This document shows, piece after piece, positions 8,265 through 31,992 of a DNA stretch of 40,816 nucleotides. Position 1 is the first letter of the stretch. Every line of letters begins with the position of its first letter. Below the pieces are notes generated by a model. The model ran no database searches. It was not told the DNA's origin and was given only the letters and a program-made list of their open reading frames with translations. This DNA comes from a virus. Its lineage: Duplodnaviria; Heunggongvirae; Uroviricota; Caudoviricetes. Where the stretch lies: positions 1 through 40,816 of the IMG/VR virus record IMGVR_UViG_2563366884_000001. One strand, written 5' to 3'. Made by a program: the position numbers and the translations under genes.

Positions 8265-8374
8265 AATAAGACCTCAACTCTTTTCCATCCGTCACGTAAT
8301 TTACTGGTGATTCGTTCAAGTAAAGATTCGGAAGGGCAGCCAGCAACAGGCCACCCTGCAATGGCATATTGCAT
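8249..8374 (-). CDS. cIII: CIII-like protein (FtsH inhibitor / CII stabiliser), 41 aa with divergent C-terminus
   Basis: MQYAIAGWPVAGCPSESLLERITSKLRDGWKR matches lambda CIII residues 1-32; AAGGAG SD upstream of this Met inside the longer annotated ORF. Confidence 0.8.
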   Translation of the reverse strand: MQYAIAGWPVAGCPSESLLERITSKLRDGWKRVEVLLCAMK

Positions 8375-8433
8375 GGTGTGCTCCTTATTTATACATAACG
8401 AAAAACGCCTCGAGTGAAGCGTTATTGGTATGC

Positions 8434-9845: not shown

Positions 9846-10496
9846 TTATGGAAGGTTTGCTAGTTTTGCATCGACAACTACGCCGATGATTTTGCAGTTT
9901 CCGTTGATCTCGATCATCGGATATTGTGGGTTAAGTGGTTTTAGAAACTTCCTGCCTGCATCAATAACTAACTTCTTGAAAGTTGCCTCGTTTTCTCCTT
10001 CGAGCTTTGCAACTACCAGTTTCCCGTTACGCGGCTCTACTTCAGGATCGACGAGTATTATCATTCCTTCAGGGATACTGAGACCGGCCGGAGCCGTCAT
10101 TGAGTCTCCCTTCACGTCCAACCAAAACGAATCTTCTGAACAGTCTACGGTTGTATCGTACCAGTTATCTATTGCACGCTTATGATATGGTTCTACAGCT
10201 TCCATCCAGCATCCTGCGCTCACCCAGCTAATCAGAGGGTATGACCCTCTTGGATCATGCCTACTGTGATAGGCAATGTTTGAAAGACTTTCCTCTCCTT
10301 TCATCAGATAGTCAGGGGAACACTTCAACGCATTAGCCAGGGCGAGAAGATTCTCTCCATTTGGCTCTGTCTCAGAGCGTTCCCACTGAGATATGGCAAC
10401 ATTAGACACGCCGACCATCTTTCCAAGTGCGGCCTGCCTGATCTTGAGTTCTTTTCTCCGAGCGCGAATGCGCTCTCCCATCAATTGAGTTTTCAT
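9846..10496 (-). CDS. c2: Prophage repressor, P22 C2-type (216 aa, LexA-like autopeptidase fold)
   Basis: MKTQLMGERIRARRKELKIRQAALGKMVGVSNVAISQWERSETEPNGENL... and C-terminus ...NGNCKIIGVVVDAKLANLP match P22 C2 along the full length as I recall it. Confidence 0.9.
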   Translation of the reverse strand: MKTQLMGERIRARRKELKIRQAALGKMVGVSNVAISQWERSETEPNGENLLALANALKCSPDYLMKGEESLSNIAYHSRHDPRGSYPLISWVSAGCWMEAVEPYHKRAIDNWYDTTVDCSEDSFWLDVKGDSMTAPAGLSIPEGMIILVDPEVEPRNGKLVVAKLEGENEATFKKLVIDAGRKFLKPLNPQYPMIEINGNCKIIGVVVDAKLANLP

Positions 10497-10576
10497 AGTT
10501 AAGACATCTTAAATAAACTTGACTTAAGATTCCTTTAGTGGATAATTTAAGTGTTCTTTAATTTCGGAGCGAGTCT
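10497..10576. promoter_or_regulatory. OR operators with divergent PR (TTGACT 10520..10525 / GATAAT 10542..10547) and PRM
   Basis: Three P22-type operator-like sites (e.g. ATTTAAGTGTTCTTTAAT at 10546..10563, AGTTAAGACATCTTAAAT at 10497..10514) between the divergent repressor and cro genes. Confidence 0.65.
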
Positions 10577-10762
10577 ATGTACAAGAAAGATGTTATCGAC
10601 CACTTCGGAACCCAGCGTGCTGTAGCTAAAGCGTTAGGCATTAGCGACGCAGCAGTCTCTCAGTGGAAGGAAGTCATCCCAGAGAAAGACGCCTATCGAC
10701 TGGAAGTCGTTACAGCTGGCGCCCTGAAGTATCAAGAAAGCGCTTACCGCAAAGCGGCATAA
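10577..10762 (+). CDS. cro: Cro, P22-type (61 aa)
   Basis: MYKKDVIDHFGTQRAVAKALGISDAAVSQWKEVIPEKDAYRLE... matches P22 Cro as I recall it; divergent from the repressor gene. Confidence 0.85.
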   Translation: MYKKDVIDHFGTQRAVAKALGISDAAVSQWKEVIPEKDAYRLEVVTAGALKYQESAYRKAA

Positions 10763-10769
10763 GCAAATT

Positions 10770-10813
10770 GCTCTTTAACAGTCATGGTCCTCATTCCCGC
10801 CGAAATGCGGGAA
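10770..10813 (+). promoter_or_regulatory. nutR: nutR: boxA GCTCTTTAACA (10770..10780) and boxB hairpin TCCCGC-CGAAAT-GCGGGA (10795..10813)
   Basis: Same boxA and boxB sequences as nutL, placed between cro and cII as in lambda. Confidence 0.7.
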
Positions 10814-10870
10814 TACAACGCGCATAAGTTGATGCGCATAACTTCTTATTTGTTAAGGAAATACTTACAT

Positions 10871-11164
10871 ATGGTTCGTGCAAACAAACGCAACGAGGCT
10901 CTAAGAATCGAGAGTGCGTTGCTTAACAAAATCGCAATGCTTGGAACTGAGAAGACAGCGGAAGCTGTGGGAGTTGATAAGTCGCAGATCAGCAGGTGGA
11001 AGAGGGACTGGATTCCAAAGTTCTCAATGCTGCTTGCTGTTCTTGAATGGGGCGTCGTTGACGACGATATGGCTCGATTGGCACGACAAGTTGCTTCGAT
11101 TCTCACCAATAAAAAACGCCCGGCGGCAACCGAGCGTTCTGATCAAATACAAATGGAATTTTAA
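10871..11164 (+). CDS. cII: CII transcriptional activator, lambda-type (97 aa)
   Basis: MVRANKRNEALRIESALLNKIAMLGTEKTAEAVGVDKSQISRWKRDWIPKFSMLLAVLEWGVVDDDMARLARQVA... is near-identical to lambda CII; start is an internal Met of the annotated 126-aa ORF. Confidence 0.9.
   Translation: MVRANKRNEALRIESALLNKIAMLGTEKTAEAVGVDKSQISRWKRDWIPKFSMLLAVLEWGVVDDDMARLARQVASILTNKKRPAATERSDQIQMEF
11109..11136 (-). terminator. oop-type terminator (to) antisense to the 3' end of cII
   Basis: Minus strand CGCTCGG-TTGCCG-CCGGGCG followed by TTTTTT, matching the 3' end of lambda oop RNA as I recall it. Confidence 0.55.
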
Positions 11165-11186: not shown

Positions 11187-11459
11187 ATGCGAAACAAAGG
11201 CTTTAATCCACCTGATACACACAAAGAAGCTAAGCGTTTGCGCTTCCTTCGTTCCATTGATGAAAGAACTCAAATCTCTTTTGTGAAAGTTGCCAGAACT
11301 GAGCTTCTGAAGGCTGAGGCGAGGGCGTTGCTCCCGTCTCTACCAAAAGAGGAGGGATATACGTTCATTCCAAACGCATTTCTGGAAAAGCTGATCAAAG
11401 AAGACATATCCGTAAGTCAGTTTAACGATGTTCTTAAGGTCTTTCGTCAAGGCAGGTAG
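11187..11459 (+). CDS. Hypothetical protein (90 aa) between cII and the replication initiator
   Basis: GAGGT SD before ATG at 11187; no family recognised. Confidence 0.5.
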   Translation: MRNKGFNPPDTHKEAKRLRFLRSIDERTQISFVKVARTELLKAEARALLPSLPKEEGYTFIPNAFLEKLIKEDISVSQFNDVLKVFRQGR

Positions 11460-11461
11460 TG

Positions 11462-12409
11462 ATGAGCAATACAGCAAAAATCTACGATTTCAGCGCCGCA
11501 CACGAGCGCAGGAGCAACAGGATGGAGAACCAGAAAACTGGTTACATTCCGTTGTACCGGAGCATTCTGAAACAGTCATGGGCGAAAGATGTTTATCTTC
11601 GCACCCTGTGGGAAAACCTTCTCCTGAATGCCGCCAGAAAGCCATACAAAGCGAATTTCAAAGGTCATGAATGGCATCTGCAACCCGGTCAACTGGTTGT
11701 GACAGCAGCTGATTTAGGTCTTCAGTTATGCGACAGGCATGGCAAGCCGGCAAGCCGTGATCAGGTTGAGCGGATGCTTCAGGTTTTTGTGAAAGAGGGG
11801 ATGATCTCCATTGATGGAGAGAAGCAAAAAGGTCGTGTGATCACCATCACAAATTACCATGAATACGCTCAAAAAATGGACAATTCCCCCGCACATGAAG
11901 CCGCACAAACAACCGCACATGATGCCGCACATGATGAAGCCAGTAATGGCGCGGCTTTCAGCGTACATGCCGCACATGAAAGCGCACATGAAGCCGCACA
12001 AACAACCGCACATCATGAACAAGAAGGTATTAACAAGAATATAAATAATACCCCCCTACCCCCCAATGGGGGAGGCGATGGGCAGGTTAAACCTGAACGT
12101 CGCAAGGCAGAACGAATCGACTACGAATCCTTCCTGAACGCCTACAACACCGAAGTCGGTGACAGGCTTCCACACGCTGTTGCGGTCAACGAGAAACGCA
12201 AACGCCGCCTGAAGAAAATCATCCCGCAACTGAAAACGCCAAACGTGGACGGTTTCAGAGCGTATGTCAGGGCGTTTGTGCATCAGGCCAAGCCGTTTTA
12301 CTTCGGAGACAACGACACGGGCTGGACGGCAGATTTTGATTACCTGCTGAGGGAAGATTCGTTAACGGGAGTTCGGGAAGGGAAGTTTGCAGACAGGGGG
12401 ATTGCATGA
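11462..12409 (+). CDS. Replication initiation protein (O-like / P22 gene 18 analogue) with internal origin iterons
   Basis: Position directly upstream of the DnaB-like helicase; contains tandem iterons encoding [10 protein letters not shown]-type peptide repeats; stop overlaps helicase start. Confidence 0.6.
11884..12040. repeat. Putative origin: about six CCGCACATGA iterons followed by an AT-rich tract
   Basis: Repeated (C/G)CGCACATGA(A/T)G units, including two 27-nt copies of CATGAAGCCGCACAAACAACCGCACAT, then ACAAGAAGGTATTAACAAGAATATAAATAATA. Confidence 0.6.
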
Positions 12410-13782
12410 AACAGGATATCGAAGCGAGCGTTATCGGTGGCCTGCTGATTGGTGGATTAACACCAATTGCCAGTGACGTTCTGGCAACGCTTGAGCCGGA
12501 AGCGTTTTCAATACCGCTCTACCGGAAAGCCTTCGAGGTTATCCGCAAGCAGGCGCGAAACAGAAACCTAATCGACGCGCTGATGGTTGCCGAGGCGTGC
12601 GGAGAGGAGCATTTCACGTCAATCCTGATGACCAGCAAAAACTGCCCGAGTTCCGCAAACCTGAAGGGATATGCCGGAATGGTCGCGGATAACTATCACC
12701 GCCGTCTGGTGCTGGAAATCATGGATGAAATGCGTGAACCAATTCAGAGCGGAACCATCGACGCATCGAGTCAGGCGATGGATGAACTTGTAAAGCGTCT
12801 TTCAGCCATCAGAAAGCCCCGTGACGAGGTTAAACCTGTACGGTTAGGGGAAATCATAACTGACTACACTGACACGCTTGACAGGCGTCTGAGGAACGGA
12901 GAAGAGTCCGATACCCTGAAGACCGGAATCGAAGAACTTGACGCCATCACCGGAGGGATGAACGCGGAAGACCTGGTGATAATCGCCGCTCGTCCTGGTA
13001 TGGGGAAAACCGAACTGGCGCTGAAGATTGCCGAAGGCGTTGCAAGTCGTGTTATTCCTGGTTCTGACGTCCGGCGCGGAGTATTGATTTTCTCAATGGA
13101 AATGAGCGCATTGCAGATTGCAGAGCGAAGCATTGCCAACGCCGGGAGGATGTCGGTTAGTGTGCTGCGAAATCCTGCAGCGATGGATGACGAAGGCTGG
13201 GCACGTGTTGCTAACGGCATGAGTCAGCTTGCAGATTTGGATGTATGGGTAGTCGATGCCTCGCGGTTATCGGTCGAAGAAATACGATCAATCGCAGAAC
13301 GGCACAAACAGGAAAATCCAAACCTGTCACTCATCATGGCGGATTATCTTGGCCTGATTGAGAAGCCGAAAGCAGACCGCAACGACCTCGCAATTGCTCA
13401 CATCTCCGGAAGCCTGAAGGCGATGGCGAAAGACCTGAAAACGCCTGTTATCTCCCTAAGTCAACTTTCGCGCGATGTTGAGAAGCGACCAAACAAACGC
13501 CCGACAAACGCAGATTTGCGTGATTCAGGAAGCATTGAACAGGACGCAGACTCAATCATCATGCTCTATCGGGAAGCGGTATATGACGAGAGCAGTAGCG
13601 CCGCGCCATTTGCTGAAATCATCGTGACGAAAAACCGTTTTGGCTCGCTTGGTACGGTTTACCAGCGGTTCTGTAACGGACACTTTGTTGCATGTGACCA
13701 GGATGAAGCCAGACAGATTTGCACAGCATCAAATGCACCTGCTGCGCGTGGCAGACGATATGCACAAGGGGCTGACGTATGA
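12406..13782 (+). CDS. DnaB-like replicative helicase (P22 gene 12 analogue), 458 aa
   Basis: DnaB N-terminal region plus RecA-like core with Walker [10 protein letters not shown] and the DnaB signature near [12 protein letters not shown]. Confidence 0.8.
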
Positions 13783-30615: not shown

Positions 30616-31992
30616 TTGGCTACATGGCAACAGGCTGGTAATTCAGGCGCGCTTCTTGCCGGGTTAGGCGGCATGAACTCCAACGCTCCAAGAGCAAGTG
30701 ATGCAGACGCCACGCTTGCATACATTCGACAGAATAACGAGATGGAGCGTTCAGGACGTAATAACGTTGGCTTGCAGGCTTTACAGGGCATTTCATCTGT
30801 CATGGATATGTATAAGCAGATGGATCAGCAGAAGCGACAGCAAGAGTTTCAGCAGGCTTATGCTGATGCATATACATCTGGTGACCGCGATGCAATGCGA
30901 AAGCTGGCATCACAGTATCCTGAGCAGCTTGACGCTGTAAGAAACGGCATGAAATTTGTCGATGAAGACCAGCGTTCCACTGTCGGTACACTGGCAGCAA
31001 GTGCCAGACTCGCAGCTTCATCTCCAGAAGCCATGATGTCATGGTTGCAGAACAACTCATCTGAGCTTACTCGTGCCGGAGTAGACCCTCTGGATGTGGC
31101 GAAAATGTATCAGCAAAATCCACAAGGTTTCACAGAGTTTGTTGATCACCTTGGAATGGCTGCACTTGGTCCGATTGATTACTTCAATGTTCAGGACAAG
31201 ATAGCTGGTCGTGAGATTGACCGAGGCAGACTGGCAGAGACAATCCGCAGCAATCAGGCTGGCGAGGCGCTAACAGCGCGTGGTCAGAATATCACGATGC
31301 GCGGTCAGGATTTATCGATGCAGAGAGCATCAATGAAAGGGGCGGTTGGGAATAATGAGCGTACAGTTCAGTTAGCAGATGGCAGAACTGTAACGGTAGG
31401 CGGGAAGCTTCACGGCGCTGGGGCTAATGCGTTCTACGAAGGTATCGACAACGAGGGGAATATGGTTCGCGTTCCTGCTGGTTCTATTGCCGCTCCGGCT
31501 ACATCGGCAGCAAGCGCGCAGAATTACGCAATGAAGAAAGATCTTGATGCAATTTCTGGTGCATCAATTGACGATCTTGGCTTCATGACTGGCATTACAG
31601 GCTCTTCAGGTTCTCCTGCTCTTGGTGCAGATATTCGTAGCCGTGCATCTGGTGGTGATCAGAGGAAACTATACAACGCTGCACAGCGAATCCAAGGAAA
31701 GATGCAGAATCAGGGCATTGCAGCAGCCAGAGACATGGGGGCATCCGGTATCAACACCGTTGCAGAAGCAAAGATGTATTTTCAAGGTATGCCACAGGTT
31801 GATTTCTCAAGCCCTGAAGCACTGCAACAATCAATGCGCGACATTCAGCAATATACCGACAATTACAACCAGCAATATAACGTTAATGTCGGTAATGGCG
31901 GGAAGAAATCATCAAGGCAACAGCCAGCTACTCAGCAATCAGCAGGAGGTAGCTACACGTCAAAATCAGGCATTCAATTTACGGTGGAATGA
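30616..31992 (+). CDS. Ejection (DNA-transfer) protein, P22 gp20 analogue (TTG start)
   Basis: GGAGGT SD 5 nt upstream of TTG; size and position equivalent to P22 gene 20. Confidence 0.55.

Follow-up and report, generated by a model that had tools for sequence, protein, structure and literature searches.

Location of the replication origin within gene O is textbook knowledge for lambdoid phages. In lambda, the location within the initiator gene is established, and for phages P22 and L it has been inferred from repeats (PMC8022706); the lambda paradigm of the origin and of initiation by O has been described (PMC5043065, PMC3349717, PMC7466680). The present study concerns a stretch of 40,816 nucleotides, the full length of the viral record IMGVR_UViG_2563366884_000001 (Caudoviricetes; hereafter the window), which carries an O-like replication initiator gene at positions 11462–12409 on the + strand. 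Eight direct units of 12 nt with the core CCGCACAT are found inside this gene at 11889–12017. We regard the region 11889–12072 as a probable replication origin, placed inside the linker-coding stretch of the initiator gene (probability roughly 0.85), and by analogy with lambda the repeats are very probably initiator-binding sites. A lambdoid origin within the initiator gene had already been proposed in the first-pass annotation, and this proposal gained support in silico from the gene context, the Phage_rep_O domain, the linker location, the constraint at the DNA level, the covariation with the N-domain, the A+T tract, the dyad, and phage L.

The window resembles lambda in its layout. In both, the origin lies between the parts of the initiator gene that code for the N-domain and the C-domain, initiator-specific repeats are followed by an A+T-rich tract of ~35–40 bp and then by an imperfect dyad, and the initiator, which has a Phage_rep_O N-domain, is transcribed from pR. 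Specifically, the array of the window was located between the two domains of a Phage_rep_O protein encoded in the order cro-cII-O-helicase downstream of a pR-like promoter, a meltable A+T tract follows the repeats directly, and the repeats covary with the N-domain and not with the C-domain or the partner protein. However, lambda has four iterons of 18–19 bp, each of them an inverted repeat to which an O dimer binds, whereas the window has eight direct units of 12 bp in two equal blocks with a conserved spacer. Furthermore, lambda O recruits the host DnaB via P, whereas the phage of the window encodes its own DnaB-type helicase. A search for inverted repeats (5-nt arms, gap ≤9) gave 0 hits at 11885–12020 of the window, and the same test gave 8 hits each for lambda, HK97, and Proteus V3, and 2 for P22. 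Inverted-repeat iterons of 18–19 bp bound by a dimer, as in lambda, P22, and HK97, are not what the window units represent. In the dyad iterons, the half-sites start ~12 bp apart (11–14 bp in the hits), a spacing like that of the window units in a different orientation. The expression "lambdoid pattern", used in the first-pass annotation, is true of the layout and not of the iteron grammar.

P22 and HK97, whose replication module corresponds to "Eru2A/Eru2B" of Stx phages, share with the window the same DnaB-type helicase partner and the same right arm, in which an AT-rich ACAA-repeat tract is followed by ACCCCC..ACCCCC..GGGGG. They differ in the N-domain, and neither was found with the window N-domain at E ≤ 1e-5. 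The iterons differ as well, those of HK97 being 19-bp dyads (ATTAGCY-N5-RGCTAAT) and those of P22 TCGGTAAA..TTTACCGA. Among the P22, HK97, and lambda records, iterons are annotated in that of lambda only. The Stx-phage paper that labels the HK97-type module Eru2A/Eru2B does not use the terms "iteron", "origin of replication", or "repeats" in its main text (PMC8044961).

A further counterpart is gp18 of phage L (Lederbergvirus ST64T), a full-length homologue of the window initiator (22% identity, E 4e-10). Its gene contains 3+3 short direct units, a spacer of 33 nt with the same box (ACCAGTAATGACGCGGCT), an AT-rich tract, and a downstream dyad; likewise, the window has two equal blocks, a spacer of ~33 nt with the CCAGTAATGNCGCGGC box, an AT tract, and a homologous initiator. 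Differences were seen in the unit, which is TGTCCAACGGA with an 11-nt period in phage L and CCGCACAT with a 12-nt period in the window, and in the types of C-domain and helicase. For phage L, gene 18 is annotated with a "putative origin of replication" (rep_origin 31649–31725 in MW013502), a prediction of the authors, who call it "likely the origin" (PMC8022706). The element of the window thus belongs to the lambdoid origin-in-O class, and within it to the short-direct-unit subtype first noted in phage L, not to the dyad-iteron subtype. Iteron origins of theta plasmids (P1, F, RK2, pSC101, R6K) are similar in that monomeric winged-helix initiators bind direct-repeat arrays that adjoin A+T-rich DNA (PMC5043065). 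Their iterons, however, lie outside the initiator coding sequence, whereas the repeats of the window are intragenic; nor did the initiator fall into the plasmid Rep/iteron class, as no sequence match was obtained in the PDB and Foldseek returned generic winged-helix proteins (E ≥ 0.09).

The literature yielded no paper on the CCGCACAT family, the two-block rule, the shared spacer box, or the conserved dyad, and a full-text search with the unit sequence CCGCACATGA returned unrelated primer matches only. No rep_origin feature was present under the match in the feature lists checked, e.g., those of CUS-3, JEP4, Klebsiella phage 2b LV-2017, and Yersinia phage 29.18. The records of Stx2a phages carry almost no annotation.

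The repeats were found where the first-pass annotation had put them, and only small corrections were necessary. Unit block 1 (11889–11936, + strand) consists of four direct units of 12 nt, namely CCGCACATGAAG, CCGCACAAACAA, and two copies of CCGCACATGATG. It is followed by a spacer of 33 nt (11937–11969, +) and by unit block 2 (11970–12017, +), again with four units (CCGCACATGAAA, GCGCACATGAAG, CCGCACAAACAA, and CCGCACATCATG). Within each block the period is exactly 12 nt. A degenerate extra unit, GCGTACATG, lies inside the spacer at 11961–11969; of the 46 versions of the array region that occur in close relatives, 14 contain GCGCACATG. The about six copies reported before, at ~12-nt spacing, correspond to five exact copies of the 10-mer (C/G)CGCACATGA (starting at 11889, 11913, 11925, 11970, and 11982) and one with a single mismatch (12006), but the units total eight. 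Similarly, the exact repeat given as two copies of 27 nt is present, with a length of 31 nt (11890–11920 = 11983–12013). The 10-residue peptide noted earlier occurs twice in the translation of the open reading frame (ORF), and two spurious ORFs of the kind mentioned there, one in another frame of the + strand (11859–12044, 61 aa) and one antisense (11726–12022, − strand, 98 aa), overlap the array and arise from the stop-free repeats. The interval 11880–12045 proposed for the origin spans the array and the AT tract; the conserved element reaches further, at least to the dyad at 12059–12072.

Directly after the array, the A+T-rich tract ATGAACAAGAAGGTATTAACAAGAATATAAATAAT (12015–12049, +; 35 nt, 80% A+T, 71% purine in the top strand), which the first-pass annotation had also seen, is the presumed DNA-unwinding element. 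Among the 30-bp segments from 10.5 to 13.8 kb it has the lowest stability, and across the window it has the seventh lowest. In 32 of the 36 related loci printed, GAACAAGAA is kept together with a subsequent A+T-rich run, an arrangement paralleled in P22, HK97, and lambda by ACAAAAGACA..ACAAAAGA. The tract is followed at 12050–12072 (+) by the direct repeat ACCCCCCT/ACCCCCCA, which ends in a GC-rich dyad, CCCCCA-A-TGGGGG (12060–12072). Of 11 sequence-distinct right arms, 10 have an inverted repeat with arms of at least 5 bp just downstream of the AT tract, and the background for such repeats is 0.126 per 40-nt window. Between lineages the dyad varies in a compensatory manner (CCCAC/GTGGG, CCCGC/GCGGG, TCCCCT/AGGGGA, and also GTCATCT/AGATGAC), with arms of 10 bp in one related locus (L036) and in phage L, and the peptide encoded there differs among related loci (PPNGG, THEVG, TREAG). 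A further inverted repeat, CAGGTT-A-AACCTG, is located at 12083–12095.

The spacer contains a box, GAAGCCAGTAATGGCGCGGCTT (11936–11957, about 22–23 nt), that is conserved in 38 loci covering all unit-specificity clades, phage L included. Its third-codon positions carry 1.0–1.7 bits, often more than the first and second positions. A search of 11850–12110 for DnaA boxes and the IHF consensus (≤1 mismatch) and for GATC gave no hit, and therefore no host factor can be put forward as a candidate for the box. A spacer hairpin, AAGCC..GGCTT, was considered and dropped, as its complementarity is not kept at other loci. Rfam returned no RNA family in the array region.

The location of these elements relative to one another bears on the strongest of the rival explanations, in which the units bind the initiator or another factor for regulation (e.g., autoregulation, copy control or handcuffing, or exclusion of related phages) and the origin lies elsewhere. 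Ectopic lambda iterons can inhibit replication (PMC3349717), and a lone near-copy of the unit core, CCGCACACGA, is present at the 5' end of the gene. Yet no second repeat cluster of comparable strength was found within the 40.8-kb window, where CGCACA occurs 14 times on the + strand, 8 times in 11890–12012 and 6 times elsewhere. The array also directly adjoins the AT tract with the lowest stability in the module, as well as the same right arm that trails the repeat arrays in the O-like genes of P22, HK97, and lambda. Furthermore, Hilliker's genetics, to the extent that it is cited in PMC8022706, put the origin specificity of L and P22 in this region. We consider a purely regulatory role improbable. 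The near-copy itself, at 11496–11505, encodes AAHE and lies ~390 nt upstream of the array; it was found in CUS-3 and in the Stx2a phage copies, not in the Klebsiella and Yersinia relatives, and may be a chance occurrence or an autoregulatory site.

The reading of the array as an origin was examined further by comparison of related loci. Loci with a related N-domain were collected from bacterial genomes (36) and viral contigs (80), and phage records from Klebsiella, Yersinia, Salmonella, and Enterobacter phages were added. The units were analyzed in 30 loci from ~16 enterobacterial genera with N-domains at least 65% identical to that of the window. These loci gave 190 units with the core CCGCRCAT (unit positions 1–8), in which positions 2, 3, 6, and 7 are almost invariant and positions 9–12 nearly free. 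The codon-position table is based on the 176 units of the 28 fully segmented loci; two loci with CCGAGC variants (L020 and L034) were left unsegmented.

In the reading frame of the units (xCC-GCA-CAT-nnn-n), the third-codon positions are 2, 5, 8, and 11. Position 2 is C in 176 of 176 units, and yet the residue specified by the codon may be P, A, T, S, G, N, or Y. Position 5, the third base of an alanine codon, is A in 20 loci and G in 8, and it is uniform within 26 of the 28 loci, the remaining two (L002 and L025) having one deviant unit each. This uniformity within loci is a concerted synonymous change from GCA to GCG. Position 8 is mostly T and position 11 random. For comparison, conserved N-domain residues in these loci have a mean of only 0.49 bit at their four-fold degenerate third positions. 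Additionally, 76 near-identical prophage copies, of 80 fetched, were measured. Their array regions comprise 46 sequence variants, all of them 133 nt long, and the minor-allele load per site was 0.0044 in the cores, 0.035 in unit positions 9–12, and 0.040 in the spacer. Counts of segregating sites alone did not significantly separate core from non-core third positions (Fisher P 0.07); the separation came from the minor-allele load and the comparison at deep divergence.

On this evidence from sequence comparison, the units are conserved as DNA and not as peptide. The opposite explanation, that the repeats matter as protein only and form a His/Ala-rich low-complexity linker that changes by slippage and unequal crossing-over while the DNA has no function in cis, is in keeping with the predicted disorder of the segment and with block numbers of 1–4 in nature, produced by 93-nt unequal crossing-over. 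However, it does not account for core third-codon positions that are more conserved than the encoded residues, or for an array length held at 133 nt in all 76 close relatives despite the 46 variants. Other N-domain clades keep the architecture with wholly different peptides (PDEPCDKPSD, GVEGSDEPPVE, EVTKQVSNEVTN), and the 11-nt period of phage L cannot give a peptide repeat. The peptide repeats are thus best seen as passengers, because the third positions are near-invariant, the residues vary, and the period in phage L is 11 nt. A role in the protein alone is, in our opinion, highly unlikely.

The units follow the N-domain of the initiator. Units of the CCGCRCAT type accompany N-domains at least 65% identical to that of the window, whatever the C-domain. 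They occur with a P22/HK97-type C-domain and a DnaB helicase in the window and in one further locus (L014), with a lambda-O-type C-domain and a P-like gene in ~25 loci, including Klebsiella phage 2b and Yersinia phage 29.18, and with a phage-L-type C-domain in one protein (P0079). Conversely, the C-domain type of the window is also found with five other repeat types, namely CCGATGAAC, CGATACACC, and the dyad iterons of HK97, of P22/BTP1, and of a Proteus phage. More distant clades have CCGATGAAC-type units (Salmonella S.Inf 5-2 and two Pantoea loci), GTCGAA/GACGAG units (Enterobacter phage ENT1), GAGGTAACAAA units (Pseudescherichia and P. wallisii), and CGATACACC units (one Sodalis locus). Altogether, six unit types follow six N-domain clades, and the same units are combined with three C-domain types. 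As judged from these sequences, such covariation is the classical signature of repeats read by the N-domain, and lambda O binds its origin through the N-terminal 162 residues (PMC2629481). Two N-domain residues, 83 (A/P vs. S) and 101 (D vs. H), split perfectly with A vs. G at unit position 5, setting 21 loci of the CCGCACAT type apart from 9 of the CCGCGCAT type. Encoded at 11705–11707 and 11759–11761 of the window, both stand at the starts of predicted helices (83–89 and 100–112) and are candidates for residues that read the bases.

The number of units is regular as well. The two blocks are equal (3+3 or 4+4) in 28 of 28 segmentable loci at the strict threshold on which this result rests; at a lax threshold, five loci had been split as 2+4 or 3+5. 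The natural number of blocks ranges from 1 to 4, two blocks being by far the modal form, and the exact 31-nt repeats are the sites of the 93-nt unequal crossover from which the variants arise. Forms with 1, 3, or 4 blocks were represented by loci L131–L135 and proteins P0001, P0008, P0045, and P0106. The one-block form, with 3 units left after an exact deletion between the 31-nt repeats and entirely without the spacer box, was seen in four distinct prophage mosaics, in all of which the helicase gene is intact. The idea that the conserved sequences are mainly recombination junctions for the shuffling of N- and C-domains, kept because they promote mosaicism, has only a slight chance of being correct: the mosaic joint between the N-domain with its units and the C-domain does fall in or next to the shared GAACAAGAA/AT-rich sequence, and BTP1 joins a P22 N-domain to an HK97-type C-domain, but this could explain the AT tract and the spacer box and not the clade-specific units that covary with the N-domain or the equal unit numbers of the blocks, and it is compatible with origin function rather than an alternative to it.

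The properties of the initiator are consistent with an origin inside its own gene. The protein has 315 aa from the ATG, and the ORF list starts it at GTG 11459 (316 aa). The N-terminal domain (coding region 11519–11872, +), presumably the origin-binding winged helix, matches Pfam Phage_rep_O (PF04492) over aa 21–133 with E 3.4e-15 and 56.8 bits, against a cutoff of 28.7, and the initiator matches PHROG 345, "replication initiation O-like" (2e-100). The C-terminal domain (12110–12406, +) presumably recruits the helicase. In the AlphaFold2 model, the N-domain is confident at aa 33–138, with a predicted local distance difference test (pLDDT) score of ~80–88, and the C-domain is helical at ~aa 218–310. 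Residues 139–217, encoded by 11873–12109 and thus by the repeats, the AT tract, and the dyad, score below 50 and are predicted to form a disordered linker; the array 11889–12017 itself encodes aa 144–187, between the Phage_rep_O N-domain and the C-domain. The gene shows 98–99% nucleotide identity to the O genes of CUS-3, JEP4, HF4s, and many Stx2a-converting phages. The last 120 aa (12047–12406) are 100% identical to HK97 gp54 and ST104 gp18 and 60.7% identical to P22 gp18, and in the loci compared a C-domain of this type is always accompanied by a DnaB-type helicase gene. Most database entries for the initiator begin at the internal Met22 (11522) and give 295 aa, or 326, 264, etc. in block variants. 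This short start is probably a mis-annotation, because the upstream residues match the N-terminus of lambda O (MTNTAKILNF, with MxNTAKI shared) and the CUS-3 record annotates the long form.

Based on the lambda model, the following course of initiation can be proposed. The N-terminal winged-helix domain would bind the units and form an O-some-like complex, probably head to tail with one domain per 12 bp, which is likelier than dimers on dyads because the units have no dyad symmetry. The nucleoprotein array would distort the DNA and would open the adjacent A+T tract, aided by negative supercoiling and by transcription that runs rightward from the pR-like promoter (10519–10546). The C-terminal domain would then recruit the phage's own DnaB-type helicase (12406–13782). 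The AHEA/AQTT peptide repeats and the extra-frame ORFs would be by-products of a DNA repeat placed in a tolerant linker. A bolder proposal, which we put forward tentatively and hold to be possible rather than probable, is that the whole family, including gp18 of phage L, uses a grammar different from that of lambda. In it, monomers would be arranged head to tail on units of 11–12 bp, in two equal blocks around the ~23-bp box GAAGCCAGTAATGGCGCGGCTT. One common factor, either a host protein or some invariant portion of the initiator, would recognize the box; a dyad of variable sequence but conserved structure would mark the side of helicase loading, and unit position 5 (A vs. G) would be read by residue 101 (D vs. 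H), located where the recognition helix starts.

Several points weigh against the assignment as an origin and need to be considered with care. Every functional step proposed above draws on the analogy with lambda O and ori-lambda, and a literature search found no binding, footprinting, or origin-activity data for the initiator family of the window or for phage L. The array has no dyad symmetry, and the O-dimer model of lambda is not directly transferable to it. A PDB sequence search with the initiator gave no match, and the best Foldseek matches in the PDB were all winged-helix DNA binders, none of them significant (best E 0.09); therefore, no structural family was assigned. One-block variants without a spacer exist in intact-looking prophages, and the two-block layout and the spacer may thus not be essential. 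Finally, the covariation of residues 83 and 101 with the units may stem from shared ancestry of the G-type clade alone.

The window is that of a P22-like, lambdoid phage, with the gene order cI-cro-cII-orf-O-helicase. A cI-type repressor gene (9846–10496, −) is followed by cro (10577–10762, +) and cII (10784–11164, +). cII and the O-like gene are separated by an ORF of 90 aa (11187–11459, +), which has its stop codon 2 nt before the O ATG. It has the same genomic position as P22 orf48 and HK97 gp53 and is called as a gene in related prophages (L131–L135), where it has no Pfam match. The helicase gene downstream of the initiator gene is on the + strand and belongs to the P22 gene 12/HK97 gp55 type (Pfam DnaB_C 1.2e-77, DnaB 6.6e-13; PHROG 19). 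A strong leftward intrinsic terminator with a 12-bp stem and a T run was found inside the 3' end of cII (11113–11140, −); the oop terminator of lambda occupies this position, which suggests an antisense RNA of the OOP type. Furthermore, Rfam Lambda_thermo, the cIII thermoregulator element, matches at 8329–8387 (−) with 88.5 bits and E 1.9e-20.

In the main, the finding confirms the correct annotation of a textbook lambdoid arrangement. The replication module is common in prophages of E. coli and Salmonella, including many Stx2a-converting phages, in which phage replication drives toxin output, and origin specificity sets the replication compatibility of co-resident prophages. Phage origins are also sensed by defence systems, Lamassu being enriched at ori-lambda (PMC12663957). 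The comparative set, with six unit types, concerted synonymous changes, and variants of 1–4 blocks, represents a clean natural experiment on the co-evolution of initiator specificity and iterons within a coding sequence.

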